NCBI GenBank assembly: GCA_023391015.1
Contig: JAEWBT010000047.1
Location: forward strand, 8,119 to 72,118
Reading direction: 5' to 3'
Length of the DNA stretch: 64,000 nucleotides
Origin: Bacteroidota bacterium
GTDB lineage: Bacteria > Bacteroidota > Bacteroidia > Chitinophagales > Chitinophagaceae
Shown piece by piece: positions 1 to 51,956 of this stretch. Made by a program: the position numbers and the translations under genes. Position 1 is the stretch's first letter. Each line of letters begins with the position of its first letter. The notes below the pieces were generated by a model that made no database searches, had not been told where the DNA came from, and worked only from the letters and a program-made list of their open reading frames with translations.

Positions 1-2
1 TG

Positions 3-389
3 AAAAAGGCCGGTGCCGAGCAGGATAAAATCGCGGTTATCGGGTATTGTTTTGGCGGAACCGGCGCACTGGAAGCCGCCCGCGGACAATTGCCCGTGCA
101 AGGGGTGGTTTCTATCCACGGCGGCTTGGCAAAAGACCCAAACCGGAAGAATGGCCCACTGCCGGTAAAGATTTTGGTGGAAAATCCCGCCGAAGACCAA
201 AGCGTAACACCGGAGCAACTCCAGAAGCTGCAACAAGAGTTGAACGAAGGCAAAGCAGACTGGCAACTCATCACTTACGCGTATTCCAAACACACCTTTA
301 CCGATCCGAAATCGCCCGACTACAACCCCACCATGGCGAAACGCGCCTGGCAGCACACGCTGTTGTTTTTGCGGGAAGTATTGCAATAG
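3..389 (+). CDS. dienelactone hydrolase family protein (5' end lies outside the window)
   Basis: The frame is open from base 3. The translation contains the IAVIGYCFGGTGALEAA nucleophile-elbow Cys motif and a C-terminal region typical of the DLH fold. Confidence 0.7.
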   Translation, partial: KKAGAEQDKIAVIGYCFGGTGALEAARGQLPVQGVVSIHGGLAKDPNRKNGPLPVKILVENPAEDQSVTPEQLQKLQQELNEGKADWQLITYAYSKHTFTDPKSPDYNPTMAKRAWQHTLLFLREVLQ

Positions 390-497
390 CTTAGCTTCTG
401 GATTGTTAGAATACTAAGTCTGCTTCCCTTGTCTCAGCTCCTATGCCTGATTGGTTTTGCCATTTTCCAGAAGCACTGCATTGGACTTTAAACTAAA

Positions 498-526
498 AGC
501 CCAGCCTTTTTCAGACTGGGCTTTTC
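498..526 (+). terminator. rho-independent terminator-like hairpin
   Basis: AGCCCAG-N11-CTGGGCT stem followed by a T run. It lies between the hydrolase stop and the displaced tRNA-Pro 3' fragment. It is also the likely ancestral terminator of the convergent tRNA. Confidence 0.55.
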
Positions 527-536
527 TTTCGTTTCT

Positions 537-582
537 GTCGGGACGACTGGATTCGAACCAGCGACCCCATGCACCCCATGCA
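537..582 (-). repeat. att direct repeat: displaced copy of the tRNA-Pro 3' portion (anticodon arm to 3' end)
   Basis: GTCGGGACGACTGGATTCGAACCAGCGACCCCATGCACCCCATGCA is identical to 47261-47306. No 5' half of a tRNA follows it. Confidence 0.85.
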
Positions 583-35856: not shown

Positions 35857-36757
35857 ATGGATTTATATCACTTTTTGCCTTAGTAATAATTTCTTCAATC
35901 TCGGTTTCGTTCACTAATGCACCGAACTTTAGTTGTTCTAACAAAGCCTTTGTCTGAGCAACGTTAATTTCATTTTTACCTACAAATTGTACCTCCATGT
36001 CTAAATTCATAACTTGACTTAGACTTTGTTTTAAGTCCTCACAATAGGCATCATAAAAAAAAGTTCCATTTTCATAGAGTAATGCGGGCTCCGCCGGGTC
36101 TTCTTTAGTGATAATTGCTGTGGAAGAAGAAATGTCGAGGCGAAACAAAGAAAAACTGTCTTTTAGACCTAATTTGATATTCAGCCGTGGTTGTTCAGCT
36201 TTCCACATATAGGCAGCAACGATCGTTGCCAGCAAATCTATTTGGACGCTTCTCATTGTTTTTCTATTTTTAGTACCTGATTTAAGGCTGTTTCTATAAG
36301 TTGCATAGCTCTCACATAACTTTTGATTGTTTGGGTTCATGATTTGAATAGCTACGTCAATTGATCGGTTCTTTTCTCTAGCAAGTGAAGCTAGAAAAGG
36401 TAAGGTTTGAGCTCTAGTATATTGGCCGCTTCCACCATTAAACCACCATTTTTCTGTATCTATTCGTGCCTTAGTCATAGTAGAGCCAATTTCTACTGGC
36501 TGAAGAATTTTCATTTGTGCATTGAGCTTGTTCTTTGGAGTTAACCAGAAAAGAAAAGTTCCTAGTCCCACTGTCACTAGTGTGCTGGTAAATAAGCCGT
36601 CAAGAATTTTATATAAAACTTCATTACTAAAATTTATTCTTTCTTGAGTCAAAAAAGGAATCAACAAATGCCTTACAAGAAATATAGCAAATAGAAGTAG
36701 AAATATAATTATGTAGAAGTATTTCCTCTGCTCCTTTGATGTTAGTTTGTCGATCAT
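35849..36757 (-). CDS. membrane protein with two N-terminal TM helices and a soluble C-terminal domain, function unknown
   Basis: YFYIIIFLLLFAIFLV and LFTSTLVTVGLGTFLFWL hydrophobic segments. 302 aa. Confidence 0.55.
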   Translation of the reverse strand: MIDKLTSKEQRKYFYIIIFLLLFAIFLVRHLLIPFLTQERINFSNEVLYKILDGLFTSTLVTVGLGTFLFWLTPKNKLNAQMKILQPVEIGSTMTKARIDTEKWWFNGGSGQYTRAQTLPFLASLAREKNRSIDVAIQIMNPNNQKLCESYATYRNSLKSGTKNRKTMRSVQIDLLATIVAAYMWKAEQPRLNIKLGLKDSFSLFRLDISSSTAIITKEDPAEPALLYENGTFFYDAYCEDLKQSLSQVMNLDMEVQFVGKNEINVAQTKALLEQLKFGALVNETEIEEIITKAKSDINPYG

Positions 36758-37279
36758 TTTCTAAGTTTTGTGTTGATTGGTTTTCTGGACTTTTTGCGCA
36801 TGATCTGTATTGTACGCCGTTATGAGCATTTTGCCTCAAACGCCTTCTTCAAAATACTCTGAAGGAATACCTCACCTGCTCGGCTGCGGACTTATGCGAT
36901 CACTGGGAGCGGGGAGGTTAACTATTCTTGTTTTGGATCATCCAATATTTAGTCAATGAGGGTTGATAAATCGGTTGGACACTTGACGCTGTATAATTTG
37001 CTACTTCTAATGATTAGGCCACTAATGTAATACACCCTGCATAAAAACAAAAACAAGCCGATCTGCAGCATACTAAGGCTATCTATTTTTAAGATGACTC
37101 CTCTCTAAACTCATTCCTTCCTTTATATTTGCCGCTCTTTTTCACCTGTACCCGTGCGCACTTCCTTTTTTACACGACTCATCCTGCGGAGCTATCTGAA
37201 GGAATATTACGTCTTGTGCCGGGAAAGGTCTCCGCATCCTTGAGATGCATCTGCTAAACCTGATTTTCCATCTTTTGGA

Positions 37280-37318
37280 AAGCCCCGCACGAAGCTTCGC
37301 TGCGGGGCTTTTTATTTC
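37280..37318 (+). terminator. strong rho-independent terminator with no upstream annotated plus-strand gene
   Basis: AAGCCCCGCA...TGCGGGGCTT 10-bp stem (with an inner CGAAGCTTCG palindrome), followed by TTTTATTT. Confidence 0.55.
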
Positions 37319-37429
37319 TCCCTCTTAAAACAATTCAACCCATGAAAAAAGAACAACGCTTCATGTCCCAACCATCGCGATCCGCCGCACCCTGCGGCGG
37401 TCTATTCCTGCAATGCAAAACCATGAAGC

Positions 37430-38167
37430 ATGGGCCACCCATCTTATCAACCAATAACAAACACAACTACCTGCCGGCTTCGTACCAAGCGCCAACGCCG
37501 GCGGGCACTTCTTGAAGACCGCGACAAGCAGCTTTTAAAGCTTGACAGAGAACACGCGCGCCTATGGGAGCAACGTAACAACCTGCCGTGGATACCGTTA
37601 GAGCCGCCTGTAATACGCGGCTGGAAACGCAGTTTTGTCCTTCGCGACGACGTCGCACGCCATAAAGACGCGCCGATGTACGAGCGGATTTTGAAGTGTA
37701 TCAATGAGGTTCAGTACAGCCACCGCCGCGACTTTAAAAAGAAGAAACGGAGCCGAGGCCGAAAAATTCACGTCGTGCGTGACCAGCAACTCAAACGCCT
37801 CGATAGCTGGGAATGGAACAAATGTGCGTTCACGCCGGAAGAAGCAGCTCACTTTGAGCTGGTGGAAAAGGTATCTTATCCGTGTGGTGCTGTTACCTAC
37901 CGCTACGTGTTCCGCGAATCCTGGCGTTTTGTTCTGCGTATCCAGCCGAACATCATCTCCCGAACCCGGCAGTACGACGCAAATCTGGAAGCCGAAATAA
38001 AAGCGATTGACAACTATCTTGACCGCACACAACAGCGTAACCGATTAAACAAGCTGCTACACGGCAGAAGTTGGAACTGGAAAAGCAGAAGGTCCGATGA
38101 TCTTCATTACACCAGCCGCCATCCCTTCCAGAATATTCCGCTCCACAACCTCTTAACCGAAGACTAA
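37430..38167 (+). CDS. basic hypothetical protein
   Basis: 245-aa ORF, Arg/Lys-rich but not low-complexity. First gene of the plus-strand RNA-repair operon. Confidence 0.5.
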   Translation: MGHPSYQPITNTTTCRLRTKRQRRRALLEDRDKQLLKLDREHARLWEQRNNLPWIPLEPPVIRGWKRSFVLRDDVARHKDAPMYERILKCINEVQYSHRRDFKKKKRSRGRKIHVVRDQQLKRLDSWEWNKCAFTPEEAAHFELVEKVSYPCGAVTYRYVFRESWRFVLRIQPNIISRTRQYDANLEAEIKAIDNYLDRTQQRNRLNKLLHGRSWNWKSRRSDDLHYTSRHPFQNIPLHNLLTED

Positions 38168-38326: not shown

Positions 38327-39046
38327 ATGATTACCGCTAAATACGGTAGGACTTATCATTACCCTTTCTCGCCGGGTACCTCCTCCGACGACCGTATTCA
38401 ATACGATTACTGGCAGCATATACAAGGCATGTCCACCCTGCTGCACACTGAGAAGTTGGATGGTGAAAACAACTGCCTGAACCGCTACGGTGTCTTTGCC
38501 CGCTCACACGCCGCACCTACTACATCACCTTGGACGGCAGCCCTGCGGCAACGTTGGGAAAGCTTAAAGCACGACCTAGGCGACCTGGAGCTTTTTGGCG
38601 AGAACCTGTATGCTGTTCACTCCATAGAATACTACCGCTTGGAGCAGCACTACTTCGTCTTTGCCGTGCGTTGTTTGGATATGTGGTTGAGTTGGGAGGA
38701 AGTGCAGTTTTATGCTGCTGCATTCGACTTTCCTACAGTGCCACTGTTAGCACAAACCAGCGACTTTCAGAACGAGGCCACCTTTAAAGCAACAGTATTG
38801 TCGCTTGCTGCGCAACGAAGCGGATTTGACTCCCACGATGTGCAAAGCGGTAAGTCTTGTACACGCGAAGGCATTGTGAGTCGAAACAGCGATGCCTTTC
38901 CCGTGGCGGCACTCGGCGAAAATGTATTTAAGTACGTACGCAAAGGGCACGTGAAAACCGACGCGCATTGGACGCGTCACTGGAAACGCGCCCGCCTTAT
39001 TCACGAACAAAAACCTGGCAGCCATGGAACCAATTCTTTCGAATAA
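38327..39046 (+). CDS. ATP-dependent RNA ligase (PF09414/Rnl-type nucleotidyltransferase)
   Basis: Motif I TEKLDGEN (KxDG), motif III LFGENLY, motif IV REGIVSR, motif V FKYVRKGHV. Confidence 0.75.
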   Translation: MITAKYGRTYHYPFSPGTSSDDRIQYDYWQHIQGMSTLLHTEKLDGENNCLNRYGVFARSHAAPTTSPWTAALRQRWESLKHDLGDLELFGENLYAVHSIEYYRLEQHYFVFAVRCLDMWLSWEEVQFYAAAFDFPTVPLLAQTSDFQNEATFKATVLSLAAQRSGFDSHDVQSGKSCTREGIVSRNSDAFPVAALGENVFKYVRKGHVKTDAHWTRHWKRARLIHEQKPGSHGTNSFE

Positions 39047-40130
39047 AGACTGGAACAATCTCCTGCAACGCTATGCGTGGGTTCGGGACATGGAAGGTGT
39101 GCCGCAAGACCCTCGTCACCATGCGGAGGGGGATGTGGCTACGCATACTCGTATGGTGCTGGATGCACTTGTCGGCTTGCCTGAATATCAAGGCCTTAAC
39201 CCGCATCTGCAAGAGGTGATTTGGATAGCCGCGCTGCTGCATGATGTAGAAAAACGCAGCACTACCTTTCGCGAGGAAGACGGCAGCATTGTATCGCCCG
39301 GCCACGCCAAGAAAGGGGCACTCACTACACGGCACATCCTGATGACAGGACTGCCGGTGCCTTTTGCCACACGGGAGGCCATTGTAGGATTGGTGCGCTA
39401 TCATGGTCTGCCGCTTTGGGTGATGCATAAGCCCGATCCGCAAAAAGCTTTGCTCGCCGTTTCGCTCGCCGTCAATACCGAATGGCTGGCGATGTTGGCT
39501 AAGGCCGATGTATTGGGCCGCATCTGCACAGATAGGACAGAGCTGTTGGAGCGGATTGAATTTTTTGAGGCCTATTGCAAAGAACAGGGTTGCTGGGGCA
39601 CTGCCTATGCTTTTGCGAGCGACGCAGCCCGCTTCGAATATTTTCATAAGGAAGGCGGCAGTCCGCTCTACAAACCCCACGAGGCGGCTATTTGCGAGGT
39701 GACGATGCTCTGTGGCCTGCCTGGTATGGGCAAGGATTTTTACTTCCGTCAGCATTGTCCCGATCTGCCCGTGGTAAGCCTGGATGCTATCCGCCGTGCG
39801 CACAAGCTCAAGCCTGATGATAAAGCCGCCACAGGCTGGGTAGTGCAGCAGGCAAAGGAAGCAGCACGCGTACACCTGCGTGCAAAGCAGAATTTTGTGT
39901 GGAATGCCACCAATATCACCCGTCAGATGCGTAGTCAACTCATCGCACTCTTTGCAGATTATGGCGCGCGGATAAAGCTGGTGTATGTAGAAAAGCCTTT
40001 CCACACCTGGCGGACGCAGAATGCGGAGCGGGAACATGTCGTTCCGATTAGCGTACTGAATAAGCTACTGAATAAGCTGGAAGTACCTACGGCGGATGAG
40101 GCGCATGAAGTAGTTTACTGGGTGGCTTAA
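39024..40130 (+). CDS. HD-domain phosphohydrolase fused to a P-loop (AAA_33-type) polynucleotide-kinase-like domain
   Basis: HHAEGDVATH...ALLHDVEK (HD motifs). Walker A CGLPGMGKD in the C-terminal half. Confidence 0.7.
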   Translation: MEPILSNKDWNNLLQRYAWVRDMEGVPQDPRHHAEGDVATHTRMVLDALVGLPEYQGLNPHLQEVIWIAALLHDVEKRSTTFREEDGSIVSPGHAKKGALTTRHILMTGLPVPFATREAIVGLVRYHGLPLWVMHKPDPQKALLAVSLAVNTEWLAMLAKADVLGRICTDRTELLERIEFFEAYCKEQGCWGTAYAFASDAARFEYFHKEGGSPLYKPHEAAICEVTMLCGLPGMGKDFYFRQHCPDLPVVSLDAIRRAHKLKPDDKAATGWVVQQAKEAARVHLRAKQNFVWNATNITRQMRSQLIALFADYGARIKLVYVEKPFHTWRTQNAEREHVVPISVLNKLLNKLEVPTADEAHEVVYWVA

Positions 40131-40277: not shown

Positions 40278-41123
40278 TTAGGCGACTAGATATTTTTCTA
40301 CCGGAAGGCAGGGTATTCTCTCCACCTTCCGGTAGGAATCTGTCGTGTAAATCGCATCCACGCCAGGTATTTCAATGCCTTTGCTAAAAATACCGTGGCT
40401 TACAATAAGGACGATGGTTTGCGCGCCTTTCGCCTTAAGCATCTGCGCGGTACCCGCGAAAGTTCCACCACCGTCGCAGATATCATCTACGATAAAGCAG
40501 GTCTGGCCGCTGAGGTCTTCTGTCGTTGTTTTAAAAGAGGTAAGCGCACCCGTCTTGAGGTCACGTTCCTTCATACACTCCACCACATTGTCTACGCCGA
40601 GATAGGCAGCGAGTTTATGGATCTTTTTTAGTGCGCCCGCGTCCGGCGAAACAAGGCAATAGTTATCAACGGTATGTTTCGTTTGATAATCCGCTATTGC
40701 ATCACGAACGAACAGATGGTTGGGCACTGCGTAAGACCGATCAATCAGCGCCGTGCTTACTTCTGAATGCGGGTCAAAGATTTTCACCTTTTTAAAGGCA
40801 GCCGCATTGAGCATAGTGGCAATCACCTTAAGCGAAAAGGGCTCGCCTTCCAGCATCACCCTGTCCATGCGCGCAGCCAGCAGATAGGAGAGATGGAGTT
40901 CTATGTGTGTGAACTCCAAATAATCCAGCGTGTTCTTCGCAAATAATAAGAGCAACAAATCGGCTGCGTTAGCCGTTCTGGCCAGAATACGGATGGGGAC
41001 TGTTCGGTCCATGTTTTCCAGACTAGCCATATCTATTTTCAGATGAGGCTGACCGTCGGGAAAGATCATTGCTTGGTAGTGCAGGTCAGAATGCTCCGGG
41101 TAGATGAGGTTGAGGGTTTTCAT
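40278..41123 (-). CDS. ribose-phosphate pyrophosphokinase homologue (Prs-like; alternatively Adps-like)
   Basis: 281 aa. PRPP-binding loop CFIVDDICDGGGT and an N-terminal Prs-like domain. Confidence 0.8.
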   Translation of the reverse strand: MKTLNLIYPEHSDLHYQAMIFPDGQPHLKIDMASLENMDRTVPIRILARTANAADLLLLLFAKNTLDYLEFTHIELHLSYLLAARMDRVMLEGEPFSLKVIATMLNAAAFKKVKIFDPHSEVSTALIDRSYAVPNHLFVRDAIADYQTKHTVDNYCLVSPDAGALKKIHKLAAYLGVDNVVECMKERDLKTGALTSFKTTTEDLSGQTCFIVDDICDGGGTFAGTAQMLKAKGAQTIVLIVSHGIFSKGIEIPGVDAIYTTDSYRKVERIPCLPVEKYLVA

Positions 41124-41854
41124 TTGTTGCGGCCTTTTTCAGTGGGATAAAACTGTTTTACTGTATCACTCTGCCAATACTGTTTGGTGTCGGCATCCAG
41201 CGCCGACAGCTTCCCATAATAGGCGGCTCCCGTGTCTAGATTCCACACGTTGCATCCTTGCATGGGCACTTCAATACCGTAGTTCAAAGTCGGTGTGTGG
41301 CCGATAAAAATCTCCTTAAAAAGCAGTAGCTGCCGTGGATAAAGTTTAGTTTCTCCACGTATATAGCTATCCTTTTCCAAAGCCATATTCCAAAGTGTGC
41401 GGTCTAAGAAAAAAGTACTTTCATGGTATTCTTTCGCTGGGCCATCCATAGAGCAAAAGCCCCCATGAATGAAAAGCCGGTTTTGCTCATCTACATAGTA
41501 GTTGTACAGGTTTTGGAAGAACTCCAAATGTGCTGTCCGTCGCGAATGGCTTAGTTCAGAATAGCTTGCTATTGTTGCTTCCCCTCCGCTGTTGAGCCAC
41601 ACTTTTTGTGGCGTTTCTCCCCGCAACCAACTCTCGCACCAAATGTCATGATTGCCGCGGATGAAGATGCAGTTGTGCTTCTTTTTCAGCGCTATCAGAA
41701 AATCTATCACTTGCGCCGACTGAGACCAGCCGTCTACGTAGTCTCCAAGAAATATGAGACGGTCATCAGGAGAAAGACCAACACGGTTAATCAACTGCTC
41801 CAACGCACGCAGGCTGCCGTGAATGTCGCCGATAACAAGAGTTCTTGGATTCAT
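41120..41854 (-). CDS. calcineurin-like metallophosphoesterase (lambda-phosphatase/PrpE type)
   Basis: VIGDIHG, FLGDYVDGW and IRGNHD motifs. ATG at 41854 preferred. Confidence 0.8.
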   Translation of the reverse strand: MNPRTLVIGDIHGSLRALEQLINRVGLSPDDRLIFLGDYVDGWSQSAQVIDFLIALKKKHNCIFIRGNHDIWCESWLRGETPQKVWLNSGGEATIASYSELSHSRRTAHLEFFQNLYNYYVDEQNRLFIHGGFCSMDGPAKEYHESTFFLDRTLWNMALEKDSYIRGETKLYPRQLLLFKEIFIGHTPTLNYGIEVPMQGCNVWNLDTGAAYYGKLSALDADTKQYWQSDTVKQFYPTEKGRNK

Positions 41855-41864
41855 AAAAGGAAGT

Positions 41865-42416
41865 CTACGCAACGTCCGTGCTGATGTACTGTGATGGTAC
41901 GGCATCCGTCAGCCAAACACCGTTTGCAGACAGGAAAAACTGGTATCCTTCCCGGTGCATATCGCCGCTCTTGACGGTGAGAATAATGGGCTTACCGCGC
42001 CGCTGCCCAACAACTGTAGCGGTGTCTTGGTCCTTACTCAAATGCACATGCTGGCGACTCATTTTCCGGATGCCTTCTTTCCGAATTGCAGGAAGCACAG
42101 CTCCTACCGTTCCATGGTATAAATGCTCAGGCGGCTGCTGCGGGATGAGACCTAGCTCAACATCTATGGAGTGTCCCTGACTCGCTCTGATTTTTGTTTT
42201 ATCCTCATTGAGCGCAAAGCGTTGTTTAGCATTCTCCCGGACTATTTCCATCAGTTCATCTGACGAAAGTGGATGGCCATGGGCTGCCATTTTGCGGAGC
42301 AATTCAGAGACGTCAGCCCAGCCTTGATCGTTTAGCTGTAAACCAATTGTTTCCGGTTTATGCCGGAGGATGAGGCTGAGAAATTTGCTGGTTTGAGTGG
42401 TTTGTTGCGGAGTCAT
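41865..42416 (-). CDS. kptA: RNA 2'-phosphotransferase Tpt1/KptA
   Basis: SKFLSLILRHKPE...DQGWADVSELL...RASQGHS...LYHGT family signature. 183 aa. Confidence 0.85.
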   Translation of the reverse strand: MTPQQTTQTSKFLSLILRHKPETIGLQLNDQGWADVSELLRKMAAHGHPLSSDELMEIVRENAKQRFALNEDKTKIRASQGHSIDVELGLIPQQPPEHLYHGTVGAVLPAIRKEGIRKMSRQHVHLSKDQDTATVVGQRRGKPIILTVKSGDMHREGYQFFLSANGVWLTDAVPSQYISTDVA

Positions 42417-42453
42417 TTGGGATGGATTGAGAAGAATGTTCTGAAGTCCCTTC

Positions 42454-43944
42454 TTAATAAGAATGAGCTGCTAGTCGCTGCGCTAAATCTTCTATATCAT
42501 TTCTCCTTGCCAAGACGGCTATCCATGTCGCCGGTATGCTTTCGCAGCCATATAAAAGTCCTGCTAGTCCACCCGTAACAGCAGCGGTTGTGTCTGTATC
42601 GCTTCCCAGGTTTACGGCTTTCAGGACCGCATCGCTGTAGTTATCGGTTGTCATCAGGCACCACAAGCTCGCTTCCAAGGTGCTCAGTACATATCCATTT
42701 GAGTTCACCTCAGTTTCTTGTGCTTTTTCAATCGCTGTAAAAGAGTTGCTATCGGTAGGGTTGTGCAGAATACGGCGGAACTTCTTGCATTCTGCTTCTG
42801 GACAATCAGGATGTGCGTCTAGAAAAGAGCTGACCTCAGTATGCAGAAATTCTAACGCTGCTGTTTTTGCTGCGCCGGAAAGGAGCTGGATCGCGAACTC
42901 TGTGTAGATGAAACAAGCGATGATGGACCGGATGTGACCATGGGTGAGTGAAGACACTTCCCGTACGTGTTCAAAGCGCTGGGGCATCGGCAACTTCTTT
43001 GTGTAGAAGATCAGCGGCAGAATGCGCATCAGCGAGCCATTACCATTGCTGTCTTCATCGCTTCCGCCCGCAAGCACAGGATTACACCCACGTGCTAGCT
43101 CACTGATAGCAGCGGAGGTGGCGATGCCAATGTCAAACACCCTTCCATGCGCCGACCAATGTCCGTATTTCTTCCATTTGACAAAGCGGTTTGCCAGATT
43201 TTGAAGATCGTAACTGCCGCACAGCATTTCCGCCAGGCAGAACGTGAGGGCGCTATCATCTGACCACGTGCCTGCTTTCTGCTGGTGTGTGCCATACGCG
43301 CGCATGTTGGTTACAGGATTGTAGCGGAGTGCTTCTCTTGAAACAAACTCCACCGGAACTCCCAAAGCGTCACCAACAGCAAGGCCGAGTAAAGCGTCTT
43401 TTACAGGATTGCGTGAACTCTTCGCTGTGATCTGTTCTTTAAGCAAACGCTCATAAATGCTGTAATTCTCGTCGTCAAAGCAAACAAAAAGAATGCGGTT
43501 AAAAGCATCAGAAGGCTTGAAGTTTCTTACGGCTTCAAGGGCTATTACAGCAGCTTTTTCTTTTGGAAAATGATAAATGCCGGTGCTGATATTTGGGAAA
43601 GCAATGGTCTTAATTCCATTCTCTATCGCAAGTTGTAAGGAGTTCCTATAACAAGATGCGAGCAGCTTAGCTTTTTCTTCTTTGTCGCCATTCCAAACTG
43701 GTCCGACTGTATGTATGACATACTTCGCGGGAAGATTTCCACCCGTAGTTATTACAGCGTCACCCGTAACACATCCACCCTGTCGGTCTCGGATGCCCAT
43801 GCATGCTTCAAGAATAGCAGGTCCACCTTTTCGGTGGATAGCTCCGTCAACACCACCTCCGCCAAGCAGAGAGCTGTTAGCGGCATTTACGATGGCGTCA
43901 ACTGACAGCGTTGTAATGTCTGCTTTGATGAGTTCTATGTTCAT
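42454..43944 (-). CDS. macro domain fused to ADP-ribosylglycohydrolase (ARH/DraG family)
   Basis: N-terminal part: [29 protein letters not shown] (macro). C-terminal part: [14 protein letters not shown]...[16 protein letters not shown] (ARH). Confidence 0.85.
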
Positions 43945-44495
43945 TGTTCTTTTAGTTTATCACGTACTTCCATTAAAGCATATCCCAGCAAGTTTTCGCC
44001 ACGCCAGTTTGCCGGATGATGAATCTGCGGATGGTCTGCTGCCATGCCTGTTCCCCAAATGGCATCTACTGGACTAGCTTCAACGATAACTCGATCTGCG
44101 GTACTCAACAGGTACATCTTCAGCGATTCATGCTGACTGAACTTCAGGTAATTTCCGGAAATCACGATTTCATTCTTTTGCGTTTCCCAGAGACTAGGAT
44201 CAAAGTCTTTTACTGCACGCCCAAGTTCTTTTGCTTCTGCAGGCGTCTTCGCAGTAAGTATGTGTGCAAGCGTATCAGCATCGCCGAAAAGCCGAGCTTT
44301 ACCAGCCATCATCCAATGCTCGGCAGTAGGGTAGATCTGTCCATCTTCCCGGAATGGAGAGCCTTCCCACCATTGGCTAAAGCAGGACGCTGTGATGCTA
44401 CCATCTTTAGAAGGACGGTGGCCCCAGAAGAATAAGTATTTTGGTTGACGGCCTTCCTCAATCTGAGCAAGCAGCCACTTGTTGCTGTATCTCAT
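43941..44495 (-). CDS. NADAR (YbiA/DUF1768) family protein
   Basis: FFWGH...CFSQWW...[16 protein letters not shown]...[12 protein letters not shown]. Confidence 0.8.
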
Positions 44496-44905
44496 GACTT
44501 GAATTTTTGCAGAATTGCTGTGAGTTCATTATCGTCAGGTAGAGTTGCTCCTTTCCCTGAGAATGCATTAACCACCCTAATGCAGCCAATGATTTGATTG
44601 TTGAATTCCTCCAAATCCTCCGCTGGTATCCAAAGCTCATCATGTCCATTATTGCCTACATTTTGAACAGGGTATTTTGATAGAAAGGAAGTCTCCAAAT
44701 CAAAAGCTGTTACTACGCCCCAATAGTCGCCAAAGGCGTCTGCGGTATTCCACTCGCGTGCGATTTGCTCTGCATAAGCTTGATGGATCACCGGATAGAA
44801 AATGGGTTGCCAAGCAAGCCGGGGAGGAAAGCGCTTCCAGCCAGAATGCTTAATAAGCGCCAGTTCCTTCAACCCGACGGGCCGGTACAGTGTTTTGCAG
44901 TTCAT
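44492..44905 (-). CDS. conserved hypothetical protein in the NAD/ADP-ribose operon
   Basis: 137-aa ORF with a 4-bp overlap with the NADAR gene. Its start lies 56 nt inside the nadV 3' end. Function not recognised. Confidence 0.5.
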   Translation of the reverse strand: MNCKTLYRPVGLKELALIKHSGWKRFPPRLAWQPIFYPVIHQAYAEQIAREWNTADAFGDYWGVVTAFDLETSFLSKYPVQNVGNNGHDELWIPAEDLEEFNNQIIGCIRVVNAFSGKGATLPDDNELTAILQKFKS

Positions 44906-46382
44906 GGGCCAGATTTGTTTTTATCCGCTCCCGGATTTCCGCAAGCGTTGTTTCTAAGAGCAGCTTCCCATCTCGGAAAACGGTCTTTAATTCCTCCTGT
45001 GCTTCCTCTTCCCAAGTGCAACTGTCTTTGAGGGCCAGCTTCCCGGTTTGTGCGTCTTTGTACACTTGTAGCAGTCCTTTGGCGGAAAGCTTCGTACCGT
45101 CGTCGGTCTTCGGACTTTTAAAAATGTCACGGCCTTCCCCATTTACCTCGCCGTAAGTGGCCTTCATGGCAAAGCCAAAAGAGTCACGCGTTACGTATTC
45201 GTAGGTGAAGGAACCAAGACCGAGGATGACATTATAACTGGCAAAGCCTTTCTGCTTTAATCCTTCCAGAATAGCCTGCTGCCGTTCGGGAGTAATGCCA
45301 TCACCGTAAATCAGTCCTACGTGACTGTCCAGCAGCTTGTAGCCTTGTGGGGTAGTGGTTCCGCCAAAGGTTTCCCACATGCATTCAATCACGCCTTTGT
45401 GTTCCGGACTGCCGGATGCGGCGGCTGCATCGCCAATGATAATTTTCACTGGATCACCACTGTCGGGGCGAATGACCACCTTACCCTCCCGGGCGAGAAT
45501 AACGTCTTTCAGCTTTGGTAAAAACTCCGTGATGACCTGCCAGAAATCCCAGGTATCGCTCACGATAGAGACAATGCCTTTAGGATAGACGTCTGTAATG
45601 AGGCGCTCAAACGTTTCCATCTCGGCGCTTGCCGTGCCCATGCACATTACGCTATGTTCCGTAGCTGGTACAGAGCCTCCAACCAGTTCCCGTTCACAGT
45701 CCGCGCCATAGTATTCCTCTAAGAAGTCAATGGCTGGAATGGTATCGGTGCCGGTGAAACAAAGCAGATGACCCGCACCGCTCATTAGCGCGTCTTCAAT
45801 ACCACTCATTCCACGAAAGGAAAAGTCGTGACCCTGCCAAGGGACAAAGCTCAGATCCTCACCCACCGTATCAAGCGCGTAGCAGGTAAAGGTTTTGAGG
45901 TAATGGTAAGCAGTTGTAGCAGAGGTACAAGGCTTCCAGAGAATGGCACTAAGGAGCGTTTCTAACGCATTCGTCAACCAAAAGAATTCCGGAACCGTGT
46001 TGCGAATCGTGAAGACTGGAACTTTCATCGGCACGAGGGTGCCTTCGGAGAGTGCCTTAATTTCTAAGGGCAGATAGCCGAGATCATGTAGCGCACCAAT
46101 GTGGTCATAGGGAATGCTGTCTTTGCCCAGATAGTTGTCTATGCGGCGGGCATAACGACTCAGTACATCTTCCTTGGGCTGTTTAAAAAAGTGTTCGTTG
46201 AACTGGCGGATGAGATACTCCTTGATGAAGTATTGCAGACCGAAAAATACCACTTCGGGCATTTCCGAATTGCGCGATTTGCGCGGTGTGAGGTTGGAGT
46301 AAACCAAGGTGGTGCCTTCGGGATACTGAAATTTATGGCCGACTTTATAGCCGTCTTTCAGCAGAATGGGGAGGATGTTCAT
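44850..46382 (-). CDS. nadV: nicotinamide phosphoribosyltransferase family protein (NadV/NAMPT; alternatively Namat-like)
   Basis: MNILPILLKDGYKVGHKFQYPEGT... is a typical NAMPT N-terminus. 510 aa. Confidence 0.85.
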   Translation of the reverse strand: MNILPILLKDGYKVGHKFQYPEGTTLVYSNLTPRKSRNSEMPEVVFFGLQYFIKEYLIRQFNEHFFKQPKEDVLSRYARRIDNYLGKDSIPYDHIGALHDLGYLPLEIKALSEGTLVPMKVPVFTIRNTVPEFFWLTNALETLLSAILWKPCTSATTAYHYLKTFTCYALDTVGEDLSFVPWQGHDFSFRGMSGIEDALMSGAGHLLCFTGTDTIPAIDFLEEYYGADCERELVGGSVPATEHSVMCMGTASAEMETFERLITDVYPKGIVSIVSDTWDFWQVITEFLPKLKDVILAREGKVVIRPDSGDPVKIIIGDAAAASGSPEHKGVIECMWETFGGTTTPQGYKLLDSHVGLIYGDGITPERQQAILEGLKQKGFASYNVILGLGSFTYEYVTRDSFGFAMKATYGEVNGEGRDIFKSPKTDDGTKLSAKGLLQVYKDAQTGKLALKDSCTWEEEAQEELKTVFRDGKLLLETTLAEIRERIKTNLAHELQNTVPARRVEGTGAY

Positions 46383-47065
46383 GACACTTGAATATGGAGT
46401 GAAAAGGCCGCTTTTTTAAGCGCCTTATTAAAGCGAAACAATTCAGGGTGACGGTTCTTCCCGCCTTCTCGTTTCATTCCTGTAGCGGTGATGTACTCTG
46501 CTTCCAGAATCTTACGGGCGAAGTTTCTTCGGTCAATATCTGTGTTTAGAATGCACTCGTAAAGCTGGTGCAGCTCACTCATGGTAAACAGCTCGTCTAG
46601 CAGTTCAAAGCCCACCGGGAAGTAGAGAATCTTAGACCTCAGCCGTTGAAGCGCGACATTGAAAATCTGTTTGTGGTCAAAACCTAGTTTCGGCAACTTG
46701 TCTATTTCGAACCACTGCACATCGTTAGCCATTGTTCCGACAGTTACTCTAAATCGCTCCGGATTAATGAGCGCGTAATAGCTCACCGAGAGCACGCGTC
46801 CGCGCGGGTCACGGGCCGGATTGTCAAAGGTGTAGAGCTGCTCCAGATAAAGCCTGGAGATGCCAAGCTTGGTGTGCAGGACACGCGTGCAAGCTTCGTC
46901 CAGCGTTTCTTCCATTTGCAGAAAGGCACCAGGCAGCGTCCAAGTGTTTGCAAAGGGTTCCTCCTTCCGGTTGAGAAGAAGAACGGAAAGCTTGCGCTGA
47001 TTATAGCCAAACAAGACCACATCGGCTGCAAGCGCCGGATTCTTGTATGCGCTGAATGCCTTCAT
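46379..47065 (-). CDS. nrtR: Nudix-related transcriptional regulator NrtR (degenerate Nudix box + C-terminal winged helix)
   Basis: LPGAFLQMEETLDEACTRVLHTKLG (Nudix box lacking REx2EE), RDPRGRVLSVSY, LGFDHKQI, and a C-terminal RRNFARKI wHTH. ATG at 47065 preferred over the upstream TTG. Confidence 0.7.
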   Translation of the reverse strand: MKAFSAYKNPALAADVVLFGYNQRKLSVLLLNRKEEPFANTWTLPGAFLQMEETLDEACTRVLHTKLGISRLYLEQLYTFDNPARDPRGRVLSVSYYALINPERFRVTVGTMANDVQWFEIDKLPKLGFDHKQIFNVALQRLRSKILYFPVGFELLDELFTMSELHQLYECILNTDIDRRNFARKILEAEYITATGMKREGGKNRHPELFRFNKALKKAAFSLHIQVS

Positions 47066-47069
47066 TTTG

Positions 47070-47090
47070 TTTGTGTATATTTTACACAAA
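47070..47090. promoter_or_regulatory. 21-bp palindrome, candidate NrtR operator
   Basis: TTTGTGTA-tattt-TACACAAA, ending 5 bp upstream of the nrtR ATG at the head of the 8-gene minus-strand operon. Confidence 0.4.
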
Positions 47091-47186: not shown

Positions 47187-47211
47187 AAATGTTGTACCTA
47201 TGTTGTACCCA
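47187..47211 (+). promoter_or_regulatory. candidate integrase arm-type sites (two TGTTGTACC repeats)
   Basis: AAATGTTGTACCTATGTTGTACCCA is identical to 693-717. It lies 50 bp inside the right att repeat. Confidence 0.45.
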
Positions 47212-47223: not shown

Positions 47224-47249
47224 AAGGCTTCCAGATCGCTGGAAGCCTT
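47224..47249 (-). terminator. hairpin terminator downstream of tRNA-Pro, supplied by island DNA
   Basis: AAGGCTTCCAG-atcg-CTGGAAGCCTT. On the minus strand it is followed by a TTTTTCTTTT run. Confidence 0.55.
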
Positions 47250-47260
47250 GATTTTACTGG

Positions 47261-47306
47261 GTCGGGACGACTGGATTCGAACCAGCGACCCCATGCACCC
47301 CATGCA
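47261..47306 (-). repeat. att direct repeat within the intact tRNA-Pro
   Basis: Identical to 537-582. Confidence 0.85.
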
Positions 47307-47335
47307 TGTGCGCTACCGGGCTGCGCTACGTCCCG
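47262..47335 (-). tRNA. tRNA-Pro (anticodon GGG)
   Basis: The reverse complement is CGGGACGTAGCGCAGCCCGGTAGCGCACATGCATGGGGTGCATGGGGTCGCTGGTTCGAATCCAGTCGTCCCGA. It folds by hand into a cloverleaf: 7-bp acceptor stem, anticodon loop AUGGGGU, T-loop TTCGAAT. Confidence 0.9.
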
Positions 47336-47383
47336 AAACTTTCCGGTAATGGGCGGCGAAGATAAACAACTTTTCCGGAAATT

Positions 47384-49250: not shown

Positions 49251-49300
49251 GGGAGGCATATGGGTTTCGAACCCACGACCTTCGGAACCACAATCCGACG
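49251..49300 (-). repeat. tRNA-His(GTG) 3' fragment (anticodon arm to 3' end, no 5' half): candidate prophage att site
   Basis: The reverse complement is CGTCGGATTGTGGTTCCGAAGGTCGTGGGTTCGAAACCCATATGCCTCCC. It has anticodon loop TTGTGGT and a T-arm. The upstream sequence does not form a D-arm or a 5' acceptor strand. Confidence 0.6.
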
Positions 49301-49344
49301 GCCCCATAAAGTTTTAAGCAACAACCCGCGCCAGTAGTGGGTTT

Positions 49345-49743
49345 CTAATTTTTTGAGGTCTTGGTTTTAGGGGCTTTTTTGGGGCGAGTGTTACCGGAAG
49401 TGTTACCCTCCGTAAAATCTTCGGAGACCGCGCCAGCGCTTGCTTTCAGGCGCAAATCCATTTCCAAAAGGGCCAGTGAGGTGCGCATGTTTTCAATGAT
49501 GTCCGTGCTGGTGTAGGCGGATTGGGGAGATCGGAACATCGTATCGGTAAAGCCATAGATGAAATCCATACTGACACCGAACAGTTTTCCTACAGCCTGG
49601 TGGTGGTGTTTGGTGAAGCCACTATTGCCGGAAGTGTAGTTGGATTGGTTGGTAGGCGATATGCCGATTGCTTCAAACCATTTCGCGTTGGTATCAATTC
49701 CGGAAATGCGTTGCTGGATGCAATAGTCTTTTACGTCCAGCAT
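49345..49743 (-). CDS. hypothetical DNA-binding-like protein with basic C-terminal tail
   Basis: 132 aa from the ATG at 49743. It has a Lys-rich tail (RPKKAPKTKTSKN). HTH assignment is weak. Confidence 0.4.
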   Translation of the reverse strand: MLDVKDYCIQQRISGIDTNAKWFEAIGISPTNQSNYTSGNSGFTKHHHQAVGKLFGVSMDFIYGFTDTMFRSPQSAYTSTDIIENMRTSLALLEMDLRLKASAGAVSEDFTEGNTSGNTRPKKAPKTKTSKN

Positions 49744-49766
49744 CCGTTCGTCGGTTATAAACAGGC

Positions 49767-49952
49767 TTATTTCCGTATTTCCGGAATTTTCCCGTTTTGC
49801 AGTGCTGCCAGCTTTTGGTCTTGTAGTTGCTGCCATTCCTTATAGAGGTTTAGGTAGTCAGAGATAATGTCACCGTGCTCCAGCATATAATCCACGAGCT
49901 GTTGCTCTTTGGCTGCAATGAGGGTGTCGATGGCGCCTATTGCTTTTTCCAT
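49767..49952 (-). CDS. small hypothetical protein
   Basis: 61-aa helical ORF directly downstream of the lipoprotein gene. Confidence 0.35.
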   Translation of the reverse strand: MEKAIGAIDTLIAAKEQQLVDYMLEHGDIISDYLNLYKEWQQLQDQKLAALQNGKIPEIRK

Positions 49953-49954
49953 TT

Positions 49955-50482
49955 TTAGAAAGTGTCCGGGCTTTGGTGGAGCGCTGAGGAGAGGCTTTTC
50001 ATCAGGCTATCTGTGTGCCTACGTATCTCCTCTTTGGTGTGTGCTACCTCTTGCCGGTATTTTTTATCTGCCTTTTCTGTAGGATCGCTGAGTCGAAAGG
50101 TTGCCGGAGTGCCAACGCTGGCACGGTCCGCCTTAAAGTCACCTATCCGGTAGCGATAGCGGCCATCTTGAACATCTACTGTTAGGGTGTAGGAGACATT
50201 CATATTCACTGGCCATTGCCCTTTTTTCGGCATTGCAACGATGTGATACCCTTTTAGGATGAGTTTCCCGGCGGCCTTGTCGCTGAGCTGAACCGTGCCG
50301 GTTGGGGTAGTATAGGTGGTGGCTACCCACTGGGCGGCTTTGACAAAAAGCTGGTCTGCTGTGCCGGAGGCTGTATCCACTTCCTCAAAAACAAATGATT
50401 CCGGCTTTGCGTCGCTCTGGGCGCTTACAGGCTCAAAACCGAACAAAACCACAATAGAAAGGAGGGCAAATGCTTTTTTCAT
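49955..50482 (-). CDS. secreted/lipoprotein-like DUF4468-type protein
   Basis: Signal peptide MKKAFALLSIVVLFGFEPVSAQ. The body resembles DUF4468 (recalled from memory). Confidence 0.55.
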   Translation of the reverse strand: MKKAFALLSIVVLFGFEPVSAQSDAKPESFVFEEVDTASGTADQLFVKAAQWVATTYTTPTGTVQLSDKAAGKLILKGYHIVAMPKKGQWPVNMNVSYTLTVDVQDGRYRYRIGDFKADRASVGTPATFRLSDPTEKADKKYRQEVAHTKEEIRRHTDSLMKSLSSALHQSPDTF

Positions 50483-50494
50483 AATGAGGTTGTT

Positions 50495-51352
50495 TTAGTC
50501 GTTCATGACGCGTTTGATGACAAAGAAAATTTGGGAACAGTCGTCCAGATTTATATCAAAGTCAGGGTAGGCTTTTTTATCCGGGTTGCGGCAGCAGCAG
50601 TGAAGAATTCCCTTTTCTACGTCCTGGCTTTTAATCATGGCTACCTGAATGCCATGCTGCCGGTCCACAATTATCCAATACGGGTATCGTTTCCCTTTTG
50701 CCGGTAACTCTACTTCATTGTCGCCCGCTTTAATCTTTGGCTCCTTTTTGCCTGGAACAGCCGGCTCAAAAGGGAGTTTATATTTCCACATAGAGCGCGG
50801 ATAGCTTTCGCCCGTCAGCTCCATGTCTTCCTGAATGCCTTTTATAGAACCGTCGTCCTGACAGCTTCCGGTAACGGTAAAGGAAACAAAGAGCGCTTCT
50901 GATACTCCGGCAACGATGGTGGAATGCTCCGGAAGCGTCTCGGTGTATTCCGGATCGCCCCAGCCTGCAACGTAGGCGGCGTGGGCCGCGATAGGTACAT
51001 GCTTATGGTAAACGCGCCACATGCCGTCCGTGAGCGGCTCAAAACGGTTGCCGTGCTTGTTGGTACGCCAGTCACGTGCTGTATCACTGGTTCGCGTTGC
51101 AACCTGTGCGTGATTTGTGTTTTTTTGGGTAGCATGGTGTAACGTTCCCGGCGTGAGCAAAGTGTCAGTGGTAACGTCTATTGCTGTGGCTATCAGCTCC
51201 TTTGTCTCTGGTGGTATTACAACTTGTTCAAAAACACGGTAAAGGCGCGGCCTGTTCCAGCCCAGCTTTTCTGCCACTCCTTTTATGCCAAGGGGCGAGT
51301 ATTTAAGCACCTCTTTAAGCAACTGGCCTTCATGAATCGCGGGCTGGTTCAT
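50495..51352 (-). CDS. phage repressor-like protein (N-terminal HTH)
   Basis: LGIKGVAEKLGWNRPRLYRVF HTH-like segment. It is divergent from a Cro-like ORF across an operator-bearing spacer. Confidence 0.5.
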   Translation of the reverse strand: MNQPAIHEGQLLKEVLKYSPLGIKGVAEKLGWNRPRLYRVFEQVVIPPETKELIATAIDVTTDTLLTPGTLHHATQKNTNHAQVATRTSDTARDWRTNKHGNRFEPLTDGMWRVYHKHVPIAAHAAYVAGWGDPEYTETLPEHSTIVAGVSEALFVSFTVTGSCQDDGSIKGIQEDMELTGESYPRSMWKYKLPFEPAVPGKKEPKIKAGDNEVELPAKGKRYPYWIIVDRQHGIQVAMIKSQDVEKGILHCCCRNPDKKAYPDFDINLDDCSQIFFVIKRVMND

Positions 51353-51375
51353 TTCACAAATATTTGTTAATACGA

Positions 51376-51452
51376 CGTTACACGGTGTATCGTATGCGTT
51401 ACACGGTGTAATATTGCATTGTAATAAAGAACGCGCATTTATACGCGCATTT
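51376..51452. promoter_or_regulatory. lysogeny-switch operators: 2 x CGTTACACGGTGTA (palindromic core TACAC-G-GTGTA) and 2 x ACGCGCATTT
   Basis: 14-mers at 51376-51389 and 51397-51410 (21-bp spacing). 10-mers at 51431-51440 and 51443-51452. All lie within the 124-bp divergent intergenic region. Confidence 0.6.
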
Positions 51453-51476
51453 GTTCGCCCAAAAGTAAAAGAAAAA

Positions 51477-51743
51477 ATGTTGAAAAAACAAAACAGCCAT
51501 CAAATCCTGACTAAGGCGCGTCGCAGTGTACCGCTTACAAGTGAGATGAAAAAGGCGCTTCGTGTGCATATCAAGGCGCATATGAGCCTTGATGATGCGG
51601 CTAAAGCGTTGGGCATTAACCGGGGCGCAACATTGGCCAAAGTGCGCAAAGACGGCACTTGCGCCTCTTCCACTTACAATAAAATTCTGGTTTTGGTAAA
51701 TCCGGATTTGGCTCCAAAGGCGGAATCTGAAAAACAGGGTTAA
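51477..51743 (+). CDS. Cro/antirepressor-like small DNA-binding protein
   Basis: 88 aa. LDDAAKALGINRGATLAKVRK is an HTH-like segment. ATG at 51477 preferred. Confidence 0.45.
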   Translation: MLKKQNSHQILTKARRSVPLTSEMKKALRVHIKAHMSLDDAAKALGINRGATLAKVRKDGTCASSTYNKILVLVNPDLAPKAESEKQG

Positions 51744-51746
51744 ACC

Positions 51747-51956
51747 ATGTCCACCGAGCAATTACTAAACGATTTCAAGATGCTGGAAGCCTACCACACG
51801 GCAGCCGCTAAACTCGCTACCGGCCTGCGGAAAGAGCTGGAGAAGGGTCTTACCGGCCCGGTATCCGGCTCTTCCAAAGGGCTAACTATTTCCGGCGAAC
51901 AGTTGGATGCGATGGCAGCAACGCTTCGGGCAAGCCGCTCCAAAACAAAGCATTAA
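51747..51956 (+). CDS. hypothetical phage protein
   Basis: 69-aa ORF, tightly packed after the Cro-like gene. Confidence 0.4.
   Translation: MSTEQLLNDFKMLEAYHTAAAKLATGLRKELEKGLTGPVSGSSKGLTISGEQLDAMAATLRASRSKTKH

Follow-up and report, generated by a model that had tools for sequence, protein, structure and literature searches.

What does a bacterial operon gain by placing enzymes that resemble those of nicotinamide salvage on either side of enzymes that process ADP-ribose (ADPR)? The question is raised by a 64-kb window, the whole stretch of 64,000 nt analysed here, from a Bacteroidota bacterium of the Chitinophagaceae (GCA_023391015.1, contig JAEWBT010000047.1, positions 8,119-72,118). Eight minus-strand open reading frames (ORFs) at 40278-47089 encode NrtR, a NAMPT-like protein, a protein of 137 aa, NADAR, a Macro-ARH fusion, Tpt1, a metallophosphoesterase (MPE), and a Prs-like protein. 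We propose, with a probability of about 0.62, that these genes form a module, inducible by ADP-ribose, which renders ADP-ribose chemistry consuming nicotinamide adenine dinucleotide (NAD+) NAD-neutral. The Prs-like and NAMPT-like proteins would act as Adps and Namat, the enzyme pair of the NARP1 pathway of phages. The predicted steps of NrtR, Adps, and Namat draw on sequence signatures of assayed relatives, and those of the other enzymes, which would feed the pair, on gene linkage and family chemistry. The ORF products were assigned domains by Pfam and NCBIfam profile searches and are listed from the first gene of the operon.

46379-47065, minus strand: NrtR, first gene of the operon (NUDIX PF00293, 2.9e-10; NrtR_WHD PF21906, 4.6e-21)
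44850-46382, minus strand: NAMPT-like protein, predicted Namat-type enzyme (NAMPT_N and NAPRTase; 510 aa)
44492-44905, minus strand: 137-aa protein (U137) of an unnamed family (no family match in Pfam or NCBIfam)
43941-44495, minus strand: NADAR (YbiA-like) ADP-ribosyl hydrolase (Pfam NADAR, 9e-53; TIGR02464, 168 bits)
42454-43944, minus strand: MacroD/YmdB-type macrodomain fused to ARH (Macro, 5.8e-49; ADP_ribosyl_GH, 1.2e-73)
41865-42416, minus strand: Tpt1/KptA, NAD+-dependent RNA 2'-phosphotransferase (NF002014, 265 bits, cut-off 239)
41120-41854, minus strand: PPP/ApaH/Pnkp-like (calcineurin-like) metallophosphoesterase (Pfam Metallophos, 5e-19)
40278-41123, minus strand: Prs-like protein, predicted Adps-type enzyme (Pribosyltran and Pribosyl_synth; 281 aa)

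The initial annotation of the window, made from the sequence, had described these genes as one minus-strand operon, and all eight ORFs are found where it placed them. The same genes are present on independent metagenome contigs. Four pairs of neighbours (nrtR/NAMPT-like, 137-aa/NADAR, NADAR/Macro-ARH, and MPE/Prs-like) overlap by 4 nt, and the remaining pairs overlap by 56 nt or are separated by gaps of 10-37 nt. This tight spacing supports a single operon, and no terminator-like site inside it exceeds background. NrtR likely starts at the ATG at 47065, which gives 228 aa and is called on the independent contigs, rather than at the TTG at 47089. The likely start of MPE, also as on the independent contigs, gives a protein of 244 aa (41120-41854), within an ORF that spans 41120-41905. 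A sigma-70 promoter scan returned fewer sites than shuffled sequences; the sigma-70 model is ill-suited to Bacteroidota promoters, and no promoter conclusion is therefore drawn. An adenylyltransferase for nicotinamide mononucleotide (NMN), or NMNAT, had been reported missing from the cluster and is missing from the whole window as well: tblastn (E ≤ 1) and phmmer searches of the 64 kb return no homologue of NadD or NadR.

The NAMPT-like protein is predicted to be a Namat, which would convert ADP-ribose pyrophosphate (ADPR-PP) and nicotinamide to NAD+ and pyrophosphate (PPi). The solved structures closest to it, 9W5X and 9W5W (E 2e-177, 594 bits), are those of SPbetaL1 Namat (PMC12774641); its score to human NAMPT is 243 bits. 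It shares 58% sequence identity with SPbetaL1 Namat. Namat is marked by the helix motif GSXΦXΦXΦTRD and the loop residue R40, and the catalytic R306 is common to Namat and NAMPT (PMC12774641). The NAMPT-like protein carries the helix motif as G390-S-F392-T-Y-E-Y396-V-T-R-D, where F392 and Y396 fall on the positions published for this motif. The loop of its selectivity clamp, TPRKSR37, is aligned with TPRTSR40 of SPbetaL1 Namat; position 40 of this loop holds a stacking Arg, Lys, or Tyr in Namat proteins. The core arginine, R305, matches SPbetaL1 R306 in an identical IRPDSGDP context. With the adenine clamp, R37, and R305 in place and the bit scores as given, the active-site comparison of NadV and Namat that had been suggested as a check favours Namat.

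The clamp is shared by the homologues linked to the cluster in related genomes. All 30 Namats readable at the clamp site carry GS[FY]TY[QE]Y[NV]TRD, and the clamp arginine is kept, as KSR or SSR, in every cluster homologue readable there. It is lost in the canonical NAMPT of locus L055, the sole NAMPT of 34% identity in the scan of related genomes, which has the canonical form GGALLQKLDRD at the helix. The adps-type gene lies six genes downstream of the namat-type gene in the same operon, inside the span of 10 genes used in assigning Namats. PDB entries 9KE8 and 9KEO (466 bits) are annotated as nicotinamide phosphoribosyltransferase and carry a half-Namat motif, GAQTYQRNTRD; they were not used as references, as the literature did not reveal their source or activity.

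The Prs-like protein is predicted to be an ADP-ribose pyrophosphokinase that converts ADPR and ATP to ADPR-PP and AMP. With TIGR01251 it scores 118 bits, barely over the cut-off of 113, and it stays far under the cut-off of every Prs equivalog model. It is 46% identical (161 bits) to an Adps-type protein of phage Av-05 that is encoded beside a Namat-type gene, about 43% identical to Adps of the Flavobacterium cluster, 34% identical (90 bits) to the biochemically assayed SPbetaL1 Adps, and 25% identical (70 bits) to E. coli Prs. A true Prs from Chitinophaga shares 49% identity with E. coli Prs, and the cluster proteins share 25-31%.

A 2026 structural study lists Arg87, His121, Asp161, Asp212, Asp213, and Asp216 as conserved acceptor residues of Adps, together with Lys185 in a catalytic β-hairpin and a remodelled ATP-donor-binding PP loop, Cys215-Ser220, that starts with Cys215-Asp216 (PMC13586617). 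Loss of a C-terminal α11-α12 module is the defining Adps signature in the same study (PMC13586617). The Prs-like protein has K185, R85/R88, H119, D161, D213, D214, and D217, which are invariant among the aligned Adps and Prs sequences; equivalence to the Adps residues was judged by motif rather than by alignment to the solved Adps. Its PP loop, D-D-I-C-D-G-G-G-T-F, has the Cys-Asp and the Phe lid of the solved Adps but GGT in place of its AAS; true Prs has DD(M/I)IDT(G/A)GT. The protein is 281 aa long, versus 315 aa for E. coli Prs; the alignment stops 23 residues short of the E. coli C terminus, and the α11-α12 module is gone. The motifs DD[IL]CDGG.TF, D.HS[ED]V, and K.R[DN]..[TN]G.L and the shortened C terminus are common to all 31 cluster-linked homologues. 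Two genuine Prs-type proteins in the same loci contain DDIIDTAGT or DDMIRSGNT and DLHA instead.

In a neighbour-joining tree, the Prs-like protein and its cluster homologues group with six phage Prs-like proteins, including SPbetaL1 Adps, with bootstrap values of 70-97%. This Adps clade does not include Prs of E. coli or Chitinophaga. The proposal to place the enzyme by phylogeny and active site is thus answered on the side of Adps by the clade in this small tree, K185, the DDICD loop, and the missing C-terminal module.

The Adps clade of the tree also holds a 341-aa protein annotated as PrsA from the Leptolyngbya phage Lbo-JY46 (2501-3526 of the stretch examined). Its gene is two genes downstream of an annotated PncB nicotinic acid phosphoribosyltransferase, and no annotated NAMPT or Namat lies near it within that stretch. 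This could be another pairing of an Adps-like enzyme.

NrtR is composed of an N-terminal Nudix-like domain and a C-terminal winged helix. Its Nudix box, GAFLQMEETLDEACTRVLHTKLG, is degenerate and lacks the catalytic RE..EE, as is typical for NrtR. Operators of NrtR are 21-bp palindromes with a GT-N7-AC consensus, and other NrtR proteins respond to ADPR (PMC2330246). A candidate operator ends 5 nt ahead of the nrtR ATG.

47070-47090, unstranded: candidate NrtR operator, a perfect 21-bp palindrome, TTTGTGTA-AAATA-TACACAAA (in full TTTGTGTAAAATATACACAAA), with a GT-N7-AC core

The palindrome is the sole perfect match to the NrtR consensus in the window. Sites with at most two mismatches are present upstream of nrtR at 36 of 60 related loci, mostly within ~50 nt, against 2.1% of random windows. 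By analogy with its relatives, NrtR would respond to ADPR here as well. That NrtR regulons include nadV and prs, which the initial annotation gave as background, agrees with the published nrtR-prs-nadV operons (PMC2330246).

The 137-aa protein has more than 3,600 homologues and lacks a Pfam domain, and sequence profiles of Pfam and NCBIfam match it to no known family. It had been described as an unknown, which holds for these databases but overlooks a fold like that of ADP-ribosyltransferases (ARTs) in the structural model. The AlphaFold2 model based on an alignment of 58 sequences has a pLDDT of 94; the prediction from the single sequence has a pLDDT of 39. Foldseek matches of the model are almost solely of the ART fold, with probabilities of 0.9-1.0 but E-values of 7e-3 or worse and TM-scores of 0.37-0.53. 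They comprise the C-terminal lobes of Tpt1/KptA, Rhs toxins (the RhsP2 complex and TreTu), CC0527, DUF952, pertussis S1, and viral ARTs and Tpt1 proteins. The family alignment contains 30 invariant columns, including R8, Y37, and E90. These three residues are located on strands 1, 2, and 5 of the model, corresponding to β1, β2, and β5 where the ART triad is expected. The RNA-modifying toxin RhsP2 also has an R-Y-E triad (PMC12340436). The model, with its weak Foldseek E-values, suggests a minimal ADP-ribosyltransferase fold with an R-Y-E triad, hereafter mini-ART.

The mini-ART family is well conserved, with a mean column identity of ~58% and 45-64% identity across 80 genomes, mostly of Bacteroidota. 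It is a cellular family, with two matches in 2.9 million viral contigs. An identity as RyR or another known domain was dropped, as Pfam and NCBIfam give nothing.

The remaining genes encode further enzymes of RNA and ADP-ribose metabolism. R18, H19, R66, and R121 of Tpt1 correspond to R16, H17, R64, and R119 of RslTpt1 by a constant offset of +2, not by alignment. The MPE gives weak matches to ApaH, PrpE, and bacterial Pnkp phosphatase. The Macro domain, of MacroD/YmdB type and fused to ARH, is encoded between the adps- and namat-type genes, and the nearest solved structures of the fusion are E. coli YmdB (1spv, 196 bits) and Lmo0067 (8za7). MacroD-type enzymes act on ADPR-1''-P. Published work shows that ADP-ribosylation of 5'-phosphates by Tpt1 is reversed by MacroD and ARH-type enzymes, and that KptA, Macro, NADAR, and phosphoesterases are associated in RNA repair. 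Two overlapping genes, convergent to the operon, adjoin it at the Prs-like end.

38327-39046, plus strand: ATP-dependent RNA ligase-like protein, convergent to the operon (Pfam RNA_ligase, 7e-28)
39024-40130, plus strand: HD-Pnk end-healing enzyme, an HD phosphoesterase with a polynucleotide kinase (AAA_33, 9e-24; weak HD/HDIG)

Between 38167 and 38327, a gene of 34 aa is called on the independent contigs and matches Pfam Hen1_L (L003, 16618-16722). It lies between a basic 245-aa ORF (37430-38167) and the RNA ligase gene, and could be what is left of a Hen1-type RNA repair partner.

Operons of this kind are widespread in Bacteroidota. NARP1 is not always among their genes, and where it is present its two genes usually flank the ADPR-processing genes. 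A scan with one genome per species gave at least 587 loci with a gene for the 137-aa protein, and the best 80 were analysed. They come mostly from Bacteroidota, including Flavobacterium, Chryseobacterium, Chitinophaga, Puia, Aquimarina, Dysgonomonas, and Emticicia. Within 10 kb of the 137-aa gene, NrtR is found at 60 of the 80 loci, Tpt1 at 59, MPE at 52, NADAR at 48, ARH at 47, and Macro at 39. A Namat-type gene is found at 33 loci, two of which have no detected Adps, and the Adps-type and Namat-type genes are both found at 31. These two genes are separated by ADPR-processing genes at 27 of the 31 loci and are adjacent, as in phages, at four. MPE directly follows tpt1 at 34 of the 50 loci that hold both. 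The 137-aa gene is directly beside NADAR at 15 of 48 loci and directly beside Macro at 23 of 39. The gene arrangement is not due to chance, as the co-occurrence of these neighbours recurs across the 80 loci.

At eight Flavobacterium loci (L016, L017, L022, L023, L026, L029, L034, and L041), a nadD homologue is located 1.5-2 kb beyond Namat on the opposite strand. It is 28-31% identical to E. coli NadD; a housekeeping adenylyltransferase for nicotinic acid mononucleotide (NaMN) or NMN therefore neighbours the cluster in this genus.

In the proposed mechanism, NrtR would bind the 21-bp palindrome at its own start and repress the operon, and free ADPR would release it. The Adps-type enzyme would use ATP to pyrophosphorylate ADPR to ADPR-PP, which the Namat-type enzyme would join with nicotinamide to form NAD+, making NMNAT unnecessary. 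Both substrates would be generated by the feeder enzymes encoded between the two NARP1 genes. Tpt1 would spend NAD+ in removing 2'-phosphates from RNA or capping 5'-phosphates, and the MPE coupled to it would open the cyclic phosphate. The MacroD-type domain would remove the 1''-phosphate and also strip ADPR from conjugates with a phosphate or acid linkage. ARH and NADAR would strip ADPR from proteins and bases, such that ARH, NADAR, and Macro would together act on modified proteins or nucleic acids. The mini-ART would be a second NAD+-consuming writer, and the adjoining RNA ligase and HD-Pnk would add end-healing and sealing of RNA. The phage NARP1 study found that ADPR-PP decays to ADPR-cyclic-phosphate; the feeders would therefore salvage that loss too. 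The initial annotation had considered a NARP1-like route plausible, and every part of that idea that sequence can address has come out in its favour, namely Namat, Adps, the lack of NMNAT, and the island.

A bolder extension, possible but less likely than not, is that closing the NAD+ cycle around ADP-ribose chemistry on nucleic acids is the native bacterial job of NARP1, and that phages captured its two-gene core, sometimes together with Macro. The spenders of NAD+ would be Tpt1 and the R-Y-E mini-ART. The MacroD, ARH, and NADAR erasers and the Tpt1-coupled MPE would return every product to free ADPR, which NrtR would sense and the split Adps and Namat would rebuild into NAD+.

Several points weigh against an NAD-neutral module. 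All enzyme activities of the operon are predicted from sequence. The PP loop of the Prs-like protein reads C-D-G-G-G-T, as compared at motif level with C-D-x-A-A-S of the solved Adps, and thus has GGT for AAS. The neighbour-joining tree is small and contains only two or three true Prs proteins, making it a modest test. The substrate of the MPE is a guess, and RNA ends are a possible target instead. The Macro domain belongs to the MacroD/YmdB type and is fused to ARH, whereas Adpp of phage NARP1-AP is Poa1p-like. The ligase and HD-Pnk genes are near the 137-aa gene at only three of the 80 related loci. These loci were chosen by the 137-aa gene, and all frequencies are conditional on it. In many relatives, among them every Chryseobacterium locus, the cluster contains neither Adps nor Namat, and for this reason NAD+ rebuilding is not its core function.

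The last point gives room to a reading in which the cluster is primarily a system of reversible nucleic-acid ADP-ribosylation, possibly toxin-antitoxin-like. The mini-ART and Tpt1 would write, NADAR, MacroD, and ARH would erase, and NARP1 would only buffer the NAD+ cost. The occurrence of the cluster without NARP1 in many genomes is in its favour, as are the likeness of the R-Y-E fold to the RNA-targeting toxin RhsP2, the frequent position of the 137-aa gene beside NADAR or Macro, and the reversal of Tpt1 5'-phosphate ADP-ribosylation by MacroD and ARH-type enzymes. A precedent exists in YarT-YbiA, a proven toxin-antitoxin pair of a small ART beside a YbiA-type NADAR. However, the conservation of the 137-aa family is unusual for conflict toxins, and control would lie with a metabolite sensor, which is not antitoxin logic. 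The Foldseek E-values are weak, and catalysis by the 137-aa protein is a prediction. We consider this reading unlikely, although it is the most credible of the three alternatives weighed here.

The location of the operon on a proven integrative island raises another possibility, that NARP1 and the converters of ADPR derivatives are anti-defence cargo protecting the island or its host from NAD+-depleting defences (SIR2, TIR, RES) or from injected ART or NADase toxins. Phage NARP1 and NARP1-AP do counter NADase defences, bacterial NARP1 neutralised SPARSA in E. coli, and the Adps of the window is as near to phage Adps (46%) as to the Flavobacterium cluster Adps. Yet no NADase-type effector (SIR2, TIR, or RES) is found among the island genes scanned, five island ORFs giving no match at all, and the rest of the island is devoted to defence (Druantia III and type I restriction-modification (R-M)), not anti-defence. 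The near absence of the 137-aa marker from viral contigs and published surveys that put bacterial NARP1 mostly outside mobile elements make this role improbable. Canonical salvage is more doubtful still. The Prs-like protein would make phosphoribosyl pyrophosphate (PRPP), the NAMPT-like protein would make NMN, and a housekeeping NMNAT elsewhere would complete NAD+, as nrtR-prs-nadV operons were read in 2008 (PMC2330246). The NCBIfam labels agree with it, being ribose-phosphate diphosphokinase for TIGR01251, at the marginal score given above, and PRK09198 phosphoribosyltransferase (587 bits). Namat keeps an NMN-forming activity in vitro (PMC12774641), and at some Flavobacterium loci a homologue of nadD is encoded within 2 kb, albeit on the other strand. 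Against this, the Namat adenine clamp is present here and absent from the canonical NAMPT of the same scan, the Adps signatures are accompanied by loss of the Prs C-terminal module, the Prs equivalog models fall short, and the 64 kb contain no NMNAT. Moreover, assayed SPbetaL1 Adps gave no product in the Prs-activity control assay, and Rodionov 2008 had flagged the second, NrtR-controlled prs paralogue as unexplained (PMC2330246). Canonical salvage is accordingly given very little weight, and the ADP-ribose-inducible, NAD-neutral module remains the preferred reading.

Much of the NARP1 background to this module is already published, including NARP1 itself, bacterial NARP1 with one assayed system, operons of the nrtR-prs-nadV type, and a phage NARP1 that includes a Macro phosphatase. 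The operon shares with phage NARP1 (Bas63 and SPbetaL1) the Adps and Namat types with their family signatures and independence of NMNAT. It differs in being located on a bacterial chromosomal island, with the two genes six apart, namat first, an NrtR repressor, and ADPR-releasing enzymes around them. Bacterial NARP1 is known from Paenibacillus foliorum, whose pfNARP1 has been demonstrated to produce NAD+ when given ADPR and nicotinamide, from Acinetobacter, and, as nrtR-prs-nadV, from Shewanella, Acinetobacter, Chromobacterium, and Cytophaga. These systems likewise have a Prs-like and a NadV-like gene in one operon, several with NrtR and an operator. They are units of two or three genes, whereas six further genes are present here (mini-ART, NADAR, Macro-ARH, Tpt1, MPE, and NrtR), which would supply both substrates. 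NARP1-AP of the Vibrio phage Gary (Adps-Macro(Adpp)-Namat) also has a Macro gene between adps and namat. The logic is similar, in that an ADPR derivative, ADPR-1''-P, is converted to ADPR for use by NARP1. The Macro protein of NARP1-AP is Poa1p-like; that of the operon is of MacroD/YmdB type with an ARH and is accompanied by extra converters (ARH, NADAR, and MPE) and two ART-fold proteins predicted to consume NAD+.

Related arrangements exist for the RNA-repair and ART components. In Runella slithyformis, overlapping ligase and HD-Pnk genes are beside a 183-aa Tpt1 (PMC6097658), and a Deinococcus ligase-PARG-HD-Pnk operon links an ADP-ribosyl hydrolase to ligase and Pnk. The Runella Tpt1 gene is co-oriented with a methyltransferase-HIT gene, with no NAD+ recycling genes described; in the window, the ligase and HD-Pnk genes are convergent to the operon. 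The YarT-YbiA pair of myxobacteria resembles the 137-aa/NADAR pair, which overlaps by 4 nt here, in having a minimal stand-alone protein of known or, here, predicted ART fold beside a YbiA-type NADAR. YarT has 114 aa and an H-Y-E triad and occurs in few myxobacteria, whereas the 137-aa protein has an R-Y-E triad and more than 3,600 members and is part of an NrtR operon.

A literature search did not find the eight-gene NrtR-led architecture, its spread in Bacteroidota, or a NARP1 split around ADPR-processing genes. The tpt1-MPE pair and the predicted ART fold of the 137-aa family were likewise not found, although one older paper may bear on both. This paper, by de Souza and Aravind in 2012, reportedly predicted NADAR, KptA, and novel-ART contexts, and priority for the gene-neighbourhood observation is provisional. 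Three papers call the physiological role of chromosomal bacterial NARP1 unknown. The operon offers a concrete and testable answer in its genetic wiring to enzymes predicted to make the substrates and to a putative ADPR-sensing repressor. It also provides a predicted fold and a context for the large unnamed mini-ART family and a predicted function for the Tpt1-coupled MPE. If the proposal is true, RNA repair and de-ADP-ribosylation are tied to NAD+ homeostasis, and a source from which phages got NARP1 is suggested.

The operon is carried by an island whose ends and integrase can be defined.

583-47260, unstranded: integrative genomic island of 46,678 bp, inserted in tRNA-Pro(GGG), with the operon as cargo at the tRNA-proximal end
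537-582, unstranded: attL, the displaced 3' part of tRNA-Pro, 46 nt exactly matching 47261-47306
47258-47336, minus strand: tRNA-Pro(GGG), the integration target (ARAGORN), whose 3' part, 47261-47306, is attR
752-1972, plus strand: tyrosine integrase of the island (phrog_1 integrase, E 1e-32)
693-717 and 47187-47211, unstranded: identical 25-bp repeat just inside each island end, AAATGTTGTACCTATGTTGTACCCA, containing the TGTTGTACC repeat

Empty-site contigs from other samples, with an identical FolE, join 47261 straight to 582..1. Their flanks are 93-99% identical to those of the window and the 46-nt core is shared; 583-47260 is thus an insertion. The mobile island that had been postulated is thereby proven, by the 46-bp tRNA-Pro repeats, the integrase, and the empty-site contigs. 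The 25-bp repeats may be arm sites of the integrase or an excisionase. A strong terminator hairpin is located at 47224-47249, near tRNA-Pro.

The remaining cargo of the island consists largely of predicted defence systems, and the operon travels on a defence island.

3657-4451: 264-aa protein with a weak ZorA-like match
4453-8823: DpdF/PsyrT-like DEAD helicase, next to Druantia III
8918-18026: Druantia type III (DruE3, 1996 aa, PADLOC 2147 bits; DruH3-like protein, 1033 aa)
18267-27125: type I R-M (HsdR, 18267-21656; HsdM, 24750-26237)

The HsdS position of the R-M system is occupied by a 295-aa ORF (26238-27125) without any match. An IrrE-type peptidase/Xre helix-turn-helix pair (22374-23529) and a 181-aa ORF without an assigned family lie between HsdR and HsdM. 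In the segment 27122-31573, a 915-aa fusion unites an N6 methylase with a type I specificity-like region and, at its C terminus, HATPase_c; genes for a VWA protein (29881-30504) and a WYL-WCX regulator (30572-31573) come next, and the combination is unusual. The stretch 26000-38000 inside the island is low in GC, at 0.36-0.47 versus about 0.50 elsewhere. Within it are an HTH_17 gene resembling that of an excisionase (32471-32914) and five ORFs without a family match (32922-33764, 34239-35069, 35215-35856, 35849-36757, and 37430-38167). The island may have been assembled in two acquisitions.

An interpretation of the window as a phage genome was prompted by AAA_24 and P22-like genes past folE on independent contigs. 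It was rejected because the operon is inside the tRNA-Pro island and the phage-like genes are outside; the large proteins belong to Druantia III, the DpdF-like helicase, and type I R-M. The region 49300-64000, which lies chromosome-ward of folE-queD, contains phage-like AAA_24/Sak4-like, P22_Y8K6-like, and DUF4468 genes, a methyltransferase-like protein of 448 aa (61527-62873), and tRNA-Ser(GGA) (54459-54542). A further mobile element, or what remains of a prophage, may occupy this region.

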